From Actinomycetota bacterium (GTDB lineage Bacteria > Actinomycetota > Acidimicrobiia > IMCC26256 > VFJJ01), in the NCBI GenBank assembly GCA_009886115.1, contig VFJJ01000115.1:1-38136 (forward strand): a DNA stretch of 38,136 nt. The letters run 5' to 3'. The notes beneath the pieces were generated by a model that saw only the letters and a list, made by a program, of their open reading frames with translations, searched no databases and was not told the origin of the DNA. Below, piece after piece: positions 7,262-9,437 of this stretch; positions within the stretch are counted from its first letter, which is position 1; every line of letters starts with the position of its first letter. The translations under genes and the position numbers were made by a program.

Positions 7262-7816
7262 ATGACTTGGCTTCCTGAGACCGTCGACGGCGACACCGAA
7301 CTCGACCGGGTGTTCGGGCTCCGTCCCGAGCTGTACGCCGAGACGCGAGCCTGGTACGGGCACATCTTCACGCCGCCCGTGTGCGACCCCGTGATCCTCG
7401 AGCTGGTGCGCCTGCGCGTGGCCGAGCTGCACCGCTGCGACTCGGAGCTGGCCATCCGCTACGAGGTGGCGCGATCGGCCGGGCTCGACGACGACAAGGC
7501 CGCGGCCGTGGCCCGCTGGCCCACCGATCCCCGGTTCAGCGAAGCCGAGCGGGCCTGCCTCGCCTTCGCCGAGGCGTTCGTGATCGACGTGCACTCGGTG
7601 ACCGACGCCGACACCGAGGCGGTGCGCCGTCATCTCAGCGATCCCGAGCTCATGGGCCTGTGCAACGCCCTGGCGTGCTACGACGGCTTCATGCGCTTGC
7701 GCATTCTGCTGGGTGTCGGCCCACCGGCGGGCGCTGGCGCCGGTGCCGCCTCCTCAGCCGTCGGCCGTCCGATCTTGGTCGCGACCCCCACGGCCGATGC
7801 CCACACGCTGTTCTGA
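7262..7816 (+). CDS. Carboxymuconolactone decarboxylase/AhpD-like protein (CxxE variant)
   Basis: ELVRLRVAELHRCDSE, FSEAERACLAFAE, VTDAD..VRRHLS; TAGCGT 6 nt before ATG (leaderless). Confidence 0.82.
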   Translation: MTWLPETVDGDTELDRVFGLRPELYAETRAWYGHIFTPPVCDPVILELVRLRVAELHRCDSELAIRYEVARSAGLDDDKAAAVARWPTDPRFSEAERACLAFAEAFVIDVHSVTDADTEAVRRHLSDPELMGLCNALACYDGFMRLRILLGVGPPAGAGAGAASSAVGRPILVATPTADAHTLF

Positions 7817-7829
7817 GCTACTCGTACCG

Positions 7830-7848
7830 GTATTCAATCTTTGACTAC
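7830..7848. promoter_or_regulatory. AT-rich operator-like inverted repeat GTATTCAA-TCT-TTGACTAC
   Basis: 8-bp arms with 1 mismatch, 22 nt upstream of the CMD selenoprotein ATG. Confidence 0.55.
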
Positions 7849-7870
7849 AGAGTGCCCGTCTGGAGAACCG

Positions 7871-8389
7871 ATGCCCCGTATCTCCCTCCCCGATGTCGAC
7901 AGCGACGATCCCGTCGCTTCGAGCCCGTTGGCCCATCAACCCCAGTTACTGTCCGACTTCATGACCGCGTACGGCACGTTGTGGAGCCACGGCGTGCTCG
8001 ATGGCGCGACCAAGGAGGTGGCTCGTCTCCGCAATGCGAGGGTCACCGACTGCGGTTTCTGAAGGAACGTGCGCTTCGCAGTTGCGAAGCATGAAGGCCT
8101 CACCGAGGACCTCGTCGCCCAGATCGACGACGGCTACGAGGACAGCACGCTTTCGCCCCGTCACAAGGCCGTGCTGCGGTTCTCCGACGCGTTCCTCCGT
8201 GATCCCCACGGGCTCTCGGAGTCGGCCCGAGCGGAGCTCCTCGAGCACTACAGCGCCGAGCAGATCGTCGAGCTCGCGGCGGGTCTGGCCATGTTCATGG
8301 GCACGTCGAAGATCGCCGTGGCCCTCGGCAACGCGCCCTCAGACATGCCCGTGATGGAGCTGCCGACCCCCGTCCGCCCATCGACCTGA
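7871..8389 (+). CDS. AhpD/CMD-family protein; candidate selenoprotein with CxxU (Sec at TGA 8060-8062)
   Basis: ORFs 7841..8062 and 8069..8389 are in frame; join reads KEVARLRNARVTD-C-G-F-U-RNVRF..GLTED..LSPRHKAVLRFSD..YSAEQIVEL; GGAG SD; 172 aa. Confidence 0.85.
8073..8090 (+). promoter_or_regulatory. Candidate bacterial SECIS hairpin of the CMD gene
   Basis: GCUUCGC-AGUU-GCGAAGC perfect 7-bp stem; G at loop position 2; 17-nt spacer from UGA. Confidence 0.75.
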
Positions 8390-8471
8390 GGGCTGCCGTG
8401 GGTGGCTAGCGTTGACCGTCGAGCCGCCCGGGCGCACCGGGCGGCCCTGGAAACCTCAGCTCGGAGGCGTC

Positions 8472-9437
8472 GTGGCGACCCAGGCAGGCCCCAAGACCAA
8501 GATGGCGACCGGCATCGTCCATGCCGGCGCGCTCATCGCCATCATCGGCACGTTCCTGAAGTGGGTCACCTTCAGCGACGAGGTCAACGATGCCTTCGAC
8601 TCGTTCGGCGAGATGCCGAACGAGACGGGGATCGACGGCGGCGACGGGTTCATCATCATCGTGGTCGCTCTGGTCGCCGCTGTGCTCGTCATCGTGGGCA
8701 AGAAGGCCAACAAGGTGCGCGGGATGGGGATCGTCGCGATCGTCGCCGCCGTCGTGTCGTTCCTCGTGTACATCGCCAACGCCGCCGACGTCAGTAGCGC
8801 CAACGACGATCTCGCGGTCTTCGGCTTCGAAGAGGGTCTGAGCATCGGTGTGGGGATCTGGGTGGGGATCATCGGATCGTTGGTGATGCTCGTGGGGGCG
8901 ATCATGTATCTGGTCTCGGGGTCGAAGGCCGCATCCGTGTGGCCGCCGGCGGGTGGGCCCGGTGCGCCGGCTCCGGGTGGATGGCCGCAGGCTCCGCAGG
9001 CCGGTCAGGTCCAGCCCGGTGGTTGGCCGCAGGCTGGTGCTCCGCAGGGCCCGGCCCCTGCTCCTGGCGGATGGCCGCAGGCTGGTGCTCCGCAGGGCCC
9101 GGCCCCTGCTCCTGGCGGATGGCCGCAGGCTGGCTACCCCCAGGACTCCACGTACAGTGCCCAGCCCGGCTACCCGCAGCCCGATGCGGTTCCGGCGCCG
9201 CCCCCCGGCTCGGGGTCGTTTGCCCCGCCGCCGGCTGCAGCGCCGCCGCTTCCGCCCCTGCCTCCGCTTCCTACACCCGGCGCTGGCGTGCCCACGAGTG
9301 CCGACGCCGGTGCCACCCGGGCGCTCTCGGCCGAGGAGATCGAGACCGCGCGGCGGCTTCGGGCCGGCGAGCAGCCGCCCCCGCCCCCGCCCCCGCCTCC
9401 GGGGCCTCCCCCTCCGCCTCCGGGGGCTCCGCAGTAG
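8472..9437 (+). CDS. Membrane protein (4 TM) with Pro/Gln/Gly-rich repetitive C-terminal tail
   Basis: GGAGG SD before GTG 8472 (alternatives 8412, 8502); four hydrophobic segments; GWPQ repeats and poly-Pro. Confidence 0.8.
   Translation: MATQAGPKTKMATGIVHAGALIAIIGTFLKWVTFSDEVNDAFDSFGEMPNETGIDGGDGFIIIVVALVAAVLVIVGKKANKVRGMGIVAIVAAVVSFLVYIANAADVSSANDDLAVFGFEEGLSIGVGIWVGIIGSLVMLVGAIMYLVSGSKAASVWPPAGGPGAPAPGGWPQAPQAGQVQPGGWPQAGAPQGPAPAPGGWPQAGAPQGPAPAPGGWPQAGYPQDSTYSAQPGYPQPDAVPAPPPGSGSFAPPPAAAPPLPPLPPLPTPGAGVPTSADAGATRALSAEEIETARRLRAGEQPPPPPPPPPGPPPPPPGAPQ
9021..9134 (+). repeat. 48-bp intragenic tandem repeat encoding GWPQAGAPQGPAPAPG
   Basis: Units start at 9021, 9069 and 9117 (partial). 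Confidence 0.85.

Follow-up and report, generated by a model that had tools for sequence, protein, structure and literature searches.

Positions 7,871 to 8,389 on the forward strand of the window (by which we mean the whole 38,136-nucleotide stretch of contig VFJJ01000115.1 that was analysed, from an Actinomycetota bacterium) very probably form one gene, referred to here as gene B, for a CMD/AhpD-like selenoprotein with a CxxU motif, in which a SECIS hairpin would drive the decoding of an internal UGA codon and whose product would have a redox role, likely with the paralog encoded by the adjoining gene A as partner. On comparative sequence evidence, gene B is a genuine mis-split gene for a predicted selenoprotein of a known class. 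The insertion of selenocysteine (Sec) that we infer would proceed as follows. When the ribosome reaches UGA 8060–8062, the hairpin at 8073–8090 would be bound by SelB carrying Sec-tRNA(Sec), Sec would be inserted in place of termination, and translation would continue to the real stop codon, TGA 8387–8389. The product would carry a C61-x-x-U64 redox pair at the AhpD CxxC position, near Glu49 and the invariant Arg68.

Reading frame of gene B and its internal UGA codon

Gene B (7871..8389, +) comprises 172 codons, with Sec as codon 64, and its assignment draws on translation, a PF02627 match, homologs, an AF2 model and Foldseek searches. The sequence-only reading had described two adjacent in-frame open reading frames (ORFs) split only by TGA 8060–8062 and giving 172 residues when joined, and translation confirms this: the ORFs 7841/7871..8062 and 8069..8389 (both +) lie in a single frame whose sole interruption is this TGA. 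The second ORF as listed opens at GTG 8069, two codons past the TGA, and the frame is uninterrupted there. With TGA read as U, the translation runs ...RLRNARVTD-C-G-F-U-RNVRFAVAK..., which places the UGA selenocysteine codon (8060..8062, +) at U64 of C61-G-F-U64. ATG 7871 is the likely start; a GGAG ribosome-binding site, read directly from the sequence, lies 5 nt 5' of it (7862..7865, +), and an invariant Arg3 is common to the homologs. The true stop is TGA 8387–8389, and no SECIS-type hairpin was found at this terminal codon.

A search of a 5.8-billion-protein collection at E <= 0.001 gave 449 matches among 1046 candidates, the best 120 of which are mostly 166–188 residues long and share 56–68% identity with gene B over approximately the whole length. 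The homolog alignment contains 114 of these 120, with 56–67% identity to gene B, plus the query, while P0021, P0039, P0062, P0066, P0067 and P0079 were dropped for lower coverage. The Cys61 and Cys64 positions are invariant in 114/114 full-length homologs, so the UGA codon is aligned with an invariant Cys64, as well as with Cys51 of PA0269. Downstream of codon 64 the alignment has 17 invariant columns, all 17 of which are kept in the window, and the full-length homologs end where gene B ends. Homologs stopping at codon 64 had been named as a finding that could overturn the selenoprotein reading; none of them stops there. Additionally, the proposed check of the joined sequence against PF02627 gave a match that crosses the internal TGA, spanning residues 25–84 (29.3 bits versus a gathering score of 23). 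One of the dropped proteins, P0067, is a 106-residue C-terminal fragment of gene B, 98% identical to it and present in the collection as a called protein, which indicates that gene callers cut gene B at the TGA.

Selection on the two halves was estimated against a same-genus genome with 94% nucleotide identity. Before the TGA, 14 synonymous and 1 non-synonymous changes give an omega of 0.018; after it, 12.8 synonymous and 3.2 non-synonymous changes give 0.077. These low values on either side argue that both halves of gene B are translated and constrained. The relaxed selection after the TGA that had been proposed as another refuting observation was not seen; selection there is purifying instead.

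The alternative that survives best, although we consider it very improbable, is that the UGA mostly terminates translation, so that at low selenium the main product of gene B would be its first 63 residues, or else a C-terminal piece initiated at GTG 8069, with Sec-containing protein as a minor product. Bacterial Sec insertion does compete with release factor 2, and a GTG is present at 8069. Both fragments would, however, be incomplete: the Pfam match spans residues 25–84, so neither holds a whole CMD domain. Moreover, no fragment-length homolog besides the mis-called P0067 appears among the best 120 matches listed, and selection acts on both halves.

Sec/Cys alternation, the hairpin and the decoding machinery

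We scanned relatives with one genome per species (378 relatives) and took codon counts at the position of codon 64 from the 80 best loci. TGA stands there in 17 loci, TGC in 58 and TGT in 5, and the proposed check for C/U alternation among homologs is thus borne out by 17 Sec forms versus 63 Cys forms. Of the 17 TGA forms, 11 belong to metagenome-assembled genomes (MAGs) recorded as Actinomycetes, Acidimicrobiia, Ilumatobacteraceae or actinobacterium, and the other 6 are spread over Deltaproteobacteria, Binatia, Spirochaetales (2), Dehalococcoidia and an unclassified MAG. Five of the 61 same-order genomes have the TGA form, namely the same-genus one (CGFU) and four from a different genus (CKLU/CGLU), and three have Cys forms (CNYC, CGIC and CETC). 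A maximum-likelihood tree, built quickly from 21 Sec and 66 Cys proteins (87 in all) with the Sec/Cys column masked, requires at least 8 Sec/Cys state changes, 4 of them forced by well-supported branches, versus a shuffled mean of 18.9. These state changes point to repeated interchange of Sec and Cys, which is described as usual for bacterial selenoproteins (PMC1794560).

The sequence-only reading had noticed a perfect 7-bp hairpin after the TGA, and we confirmed it at 8073..8090 (+). The sequence GCTTCGC-AGTT-GCGAAGC gives seven perfect Watson-Crick pairs (stem GCUUCGC/GCGAAGC) and a 4-nt loop (AGUU), the stem beginning 10 nt and the loop 17 nt past UGA 8060–8062. The hairpin is included in the minimum-energy fold, and the whole 81-nt region is not an exceptional folder (z = -1.79; 9/200 shuffles equal). 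Pairs were scored at set positions downstream of the codon, +11..+17 against +22..+28, and at least 6 contiguous in-register pairs were present in 16/17 TGA forms versus 1/63 Cys forms. Specifically, all 7 pairs occur in 12 of the TGA forms, 6 pairs in 4, and only 3 contiguous pairs in the remaining one (L112), while in the Cys forms the contiguous run is at most 3 pairs in 61, 5 in one and 6 in another. It is this comparison of Sec with Cys forms across the 80 loci that marks the hairpin as more than chance. The 5' arm, which covers invariant Arg-Phe-Ala codons, is identical in 17/17 Sec forms, an identity to which the constraint on this coding also contributes. The 3' arm arises in Sec forms from Ala-Lys/Arg written GCG-AAG or GCG-AGG, and the Cys forms mostly have GCG-CGC. 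The program bSECISearch looks for a UGA that is closely followed by a stem-loop whose apical loop contains a G. In the 17 TGA forms the loops are GGUC (11), AGUU (2), CGUG (2), AGGU (1) and CGUU (1), so that the second loop position is G in all 17, and the Sargasso Sea survey gives a conserved guanosine in the loop as a feature of bacterial SECIS elements (PMC1088965).

The suggested covariation analysis was upheld in one part and fell short in the other. Pairing is strong, with 95.7% of cells paired across 24 Sec-form sequences (23 distinct) versus 33–56% when the partner arm is slid by 1–3 columns. Covariation is weak: one compensatory change (C-G to G-C) is seen in one paralog lineage (contig C9 and its same-genus copy), two further stem pairs vary by G-U wobble only, and 87/500 shuffles match the observed count of covarying pairs. 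With covariation this thin, it is the difference between Sec and Cys forms that carries the case for a SECIS element. An Rfam scan of 7700–8500 at E up to 10 gave two chance-level matches and no SECIS family. Taken together, the pairing specific to Sec forms and held in register identifies 8073–8090, at the level of sequence comparison, as a predicted bacterial SECIS element.

These data also bear on the possibility that gene B is a pseudogene, a CMD gene of the Cys type inactivated by a TGC to TGA nonsense mutation, with a hairpin there by chance. Such a mutation would be a single base change, and the splitting of the gene by gene callers, with the 106-residue P0067 as a called protein, is what a broken gene would also give. 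Yet the same TGA recurs in 17/80 loci, which span several phyla, as well as in 5 relatives, the downstream omega is 0.077, all 17 invariant downstream columns are kept, and the hairpin tracks the TGA. A pseudogene is effectively refuted by this conservation, and we give it next to no weight.

The genome of the window (224 contigs, 95.6% complete) was searched for the Sec machinery, whose absence had been listed as a further refuting observation. On the contrary, selA, selB, selD and tRNA-Sec were all found. The selB gene adjoins selA on contig C73 and scores 293.7 bits, or 320.5 bits with its C-terminal piece (cut-off 242); selA scores 458.7 bits (cut-off 268); selD lies on contig C57 and scores 398.4 bits (cut-off 125). 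The tRNA-Sec gene, also on contig C73, scores 66.2 bits (cut-off 47) and is called by ARAGORN as tRNA-SeC with anticodon TCA. Among relatives, all 5 that have a TGA form carry selA above the cut-off. Of the 3 that have a Cys form, one has selA, and no selA was found in the other two, which are 98% and 86% complete. The relatives are Acidimicrobiia, in agreement with the actinobacterial host that the sequence-only reading had deduced.

UGA is reassigned in some uncultured bacteria, but a genome-wide reassignment (to Trp or Gly) or a near-cognate read-through as Cys or Trp is scarcely credible here, as TGA ends gene A (7814–7816) and ends gene B exactly at the end of its homologs, internal TGAs are absent from selA, selB, selD and 15/18 CMD matches in the genome and occur only at the Cys-aligned site, and a dedicated tRNA-Sec and SelB are encoded. 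The interpretation of the split ORFs as one selenoprotein gene is thus supported, every refuting test that had been named for it having come out in its favour.

The genome has at least four CxxU CMD genes, namely gene B and genes with CRTU (contig C9), CHIU (C122) and CFVU (C23), and each of the latter three has a hairpin after the TGA and an Arg four residues past Sec. A second A-B cassette was observed at G000:C9:7664-8490 (-; loci L041 and L136), where the CRTU gene is preceded by an A-type CMD gene (LGCDAE), and it is the hairpin of this CRTU gene that carries the compensatory C-G to G-C change. The CHIU gene (G000:C122:2753-3001, +) and the CFVU gene (G000:C23:40415-40663, -), loci L138 and L142, belong to a CMD subfamily different from that of gene B, which includes a CPIU gene of relative G054.

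Predicted fold and active site of the gene B protein

The AF2 model of the gene B protein, built from a 115-row alignment, is all-helical (pLDDT 92.1, pTM 0.88). Its best PDB matches in Foldseek are Atu0492, Mlr4105, PA0269 AhpD and D. radiodurans AhpD, with TM values of 0.65–0.72 and a probability of 1.00 to 2gmy, 3c1l, 2ijc, 6k40 and 7xw1. Foldseek also finds TIGR01926-type 'peroxidase-related' proteins and, more distantly, the thiol-dependent debrominase Bmp8. None of the specific NCBIfam models is matched above its curated cut-off, the gene B protein scoring 47.0 bits against TIGR01926 (cut-off 81.8), 38.3 against NF053654 (cut-off 310), 27.2 against NF041238 (cut-off 175) and 21.9 against NF041047 (cut-off 110).

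In AhpD the second Cys is the attacking residue, and Sec takes this place in gene B when compared with PA0269 and M. tuberculosis AhpD. Pairwise and profile alignments put Glu49, C61 and U64 opposite Glu36, Cys48 and Cys51 of PA0269 (2o4d, 2ijc and 7xw1), whose helical fold is shared at TM 0.65–0.68 together with the Glu and CxxC positions. Glu49 is invariant and aligned with the relay Glu (Glu36 of PA0269, Glu118 of M. tuberculosis AhpD). In these two proteins the Glu, the Cys pair and a His act as proton-relay residues, and the relay His (His55/His137) is called invariant among AhpD-like structures (PMC3141380). The solved homologs that we compared all have this His (CAFCVDMH, CAYCVNMH and CYYCLTAH). 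In contrast, the corresponding residue of gene B, four residues past Sec, is Arg68, and this Arg is invariant in 115/115 sequences. The gene B protein therefore belongs to the CMD/AhpD-like fold family; its catalytic pair is in the AhpD position, and it lacks one defining feature of the AhpD relay. The replacement of the relay His by Arg implies that the peroxidase chemistry of AhpD is not simply transferable to it. The most likely activity would be a cycle between selenol/thiol and selenenylsulfide, through which the enzyme would act as a reductant of a hydroperoxide or of a partner protein carrying a disulfide or sulfenic acid. Among the ORFs looked at between 6500 and 11150, no ahpC gene was noticed.

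In the same AF2 model, the conserved C-terminal tail, MPV..PTP, makes a short strand at residues 162–164 (DNA ~8354–8362), and a second short strand lies at residues 67–69 (DNA ~8069–8077), directly after Sec. The DSSP strings suggest that the two strands may pair, which, if real, would put the tail beside the active site.

Pairing with gene A and relation to known families

Upstream of gene B lies gene A (7262..7816, +), a CMD paralog of 184 codons that matches PF02627 with 37.6 bits and has C-D-S-E where gene B has C-G-F-U. Gene A ends at TGA 7814–7816, which is in the same frame as the ATG of gene B with no stop between them. We considered and rejected read-through of this TGA into gene B. 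The 54-nt spacer (7817..7870, +) appears non-coding though in frame, as judged from its substitution pattern (6 differences from the same-genus genome, 0 of them at third codon positions) and the lack of a hairpin after the TGA of gene A.

A relative of gene A (at least 35% identity) lies directly upstream on the same strand in 68/80 loci, comprising 14/17 Sec forms and 54/63 Cys forms, and some of the 12 loci lacking it have insufficient flank. Of the 68 A proteins, 42 retain the first Cys and 40 the Glu, a pattern which implies that the A half is without a redox pair. With start codons chosen heuristically, the A-B gap is at most 54 nt in all 66 measurable loci, and 29 of these are overlaps of 1–44 nt, mostly of 4 or 1. 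In 13 loci (L057, L073, L075, L078, L081, L082, L085, L095, L109, L111, L115, L116 and L120), A and B form one continuous ORF of 339–352 codons; these come from Acidimicrobiaceae MAGs, the cultured Yinghuangia and Streptodolium (Streptomycetaceae) and a Binatia MAG. The fused proteins contain two PF02627 stretches, and none scores above the cut-off of any NCBIfam model. Two further candidates for Sec-containing A-B fusions, L076 and L096, were left as ambiguous, the joint being Arg-rich and off-consensus. On this sequence evidence, gene B probably works as a two-part unit with its degenerate paralog A.

The model of a natural A-B fusion (13-row alignment) has a pLDDT of 84.1 and a pTM of 0.87, and the latter, high for two domains with a disordered linker, suggests that the two halves have a fixed packing. 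The best whole-length Foldseek matches of this model are to human Sestrin2, which also has two AhpD-like halves (TMq 0.53–0.56); with E 7e-3, an rmsd of about 10 A and no similarity in sequence, this is a weak match, to be taken as a lead and not as a relationship. Sestrin2 has its redox Cys in one half only. We tentatively propose that A-B could represent an uncurated, widespread double-CMD oxidoreductase, in which a degenerate half (CxxE or no Cys) and a catalytic half (Glu...Cys-x-x-Cys/Sec-x-x-x-Arg), encoded by coupled genes or as a fusion, would form a Sestrin-like pseudo-dimer whose chemistry and substrate, with Arg for His, would be unlike those of AhpD. If this tentative proposal holds, its range would cover Actinomycetota, Myxococcota, Binatota, Spirochaetota, Chloroflexota and Pseudomonadota.

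A crude clustering of flanking ORFs, made to look for further conserved neighbours, was contaminated by spurious high-GC ORFs. The genuine neighbours apart from A vary by lineage, including SDR, amine oxidase, LepA, FemAB-like, OmpA, amidohydrolase and TPR proteins. The neighbours in the window are common only to the same-genus genome, namely a bPH domain protein, a Pro-rich membrane protein, a VOC-type protein and a thiolase. Between the stop of gene B and the next gene, at ~8424–8446, lies a strong GC-rich hairpin (~9 bp) with no T run after it, which may be a terminator or attenuator of the kind found in high-GC bacteria. Within the ORF of the Pro-rich predicted membrane protein (8412–9437), a perfect 48-nt tandem repeat of 2.3 copies (9024–9133) encodes repeated GGWPQAGAPQGPAPAP units.

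CxxU proteins of this class are already catalogued. The Sargasso Sea survey of 2005 lists as new selenoprotein families an 'AhpD-like protein' (COG2128, CxxU, 27 genes) and a 'CMD domain-containing protein' (Pfam02627, CxxU, 4 genes) (PMC1088965), and the GOS study of 2008 lists 299 'AhpD-like 1' (COG2128) and 70 'AhpD-like 2' (pfam02627) genes (PMC2398784). More recently, a 2026 review places AhpD-like/CMD selenoproteins under TIGR01926 and PF02627 (PMC13188914), and a 2026 database has a page for the AhpD-like family (PMC13326102). The novelty claimed in the sequence-only reading was hence overrated (PMC1088965, PMC2398784, PMC13188914). Actinobacteria were already listed in 2006 as one of three selenoprotein-rich phyla (PMC1794560). 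For Acidimicrobiia, a 2026 preprint gives about 5 selenoproteins per Actinomarina genome.

Gene B is like these AhpD-like/CMD CxxU families in its CMD/AhpD fold, in Sec replacing the second Cys, in a SECIS element with a loop G directly after it, and in widespread Cys homologs. It differs in its low TIGR01926 score, in Arg for His and in the A pair or fusion, the comparison being with the families as their descriptions give them. The fused A-B forms also resemble NF041238, the 'alkylhydroperoxidase-related (seleno)protein' model of 357 positions that corresponds to 'hypothetical protein 1' of the Sargasso Sea study, whose Sec motif is in the C-terminal half and whose size is approximately that of two CMD units; the fused forms have 339–352 residues. 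NF041238 is nevertheless not the family of gene B, as the fused forms reach only 22–30 bits and gene B 27, far from the cut-off of 175. In a literature search on AhpD-like paralog pairs or heteromers, none of the papers listed contained the term AhpD-like, and we make no claim that such pairing is unpublished; the A-B pairing or fusion and the Arg-for-His active site of this subfamily may be new.

Gene B leaves the knowledge of Sec decoding unchanged, and its main value is the correction of the annotation of a split gene. Since gene callers split this gene, the selenoproteomes of uncultured Acidimicrobiia-type actinobacteria would be under-counted. The seemingly obligate A-B pairing or fusion and the change from His to Arg mark a subfamily without a specific curated NCBIfam model, and raise the question of whether a degenerate half may serve as the structural partner of a selenol-bearing half, and of what the pair would reduce.
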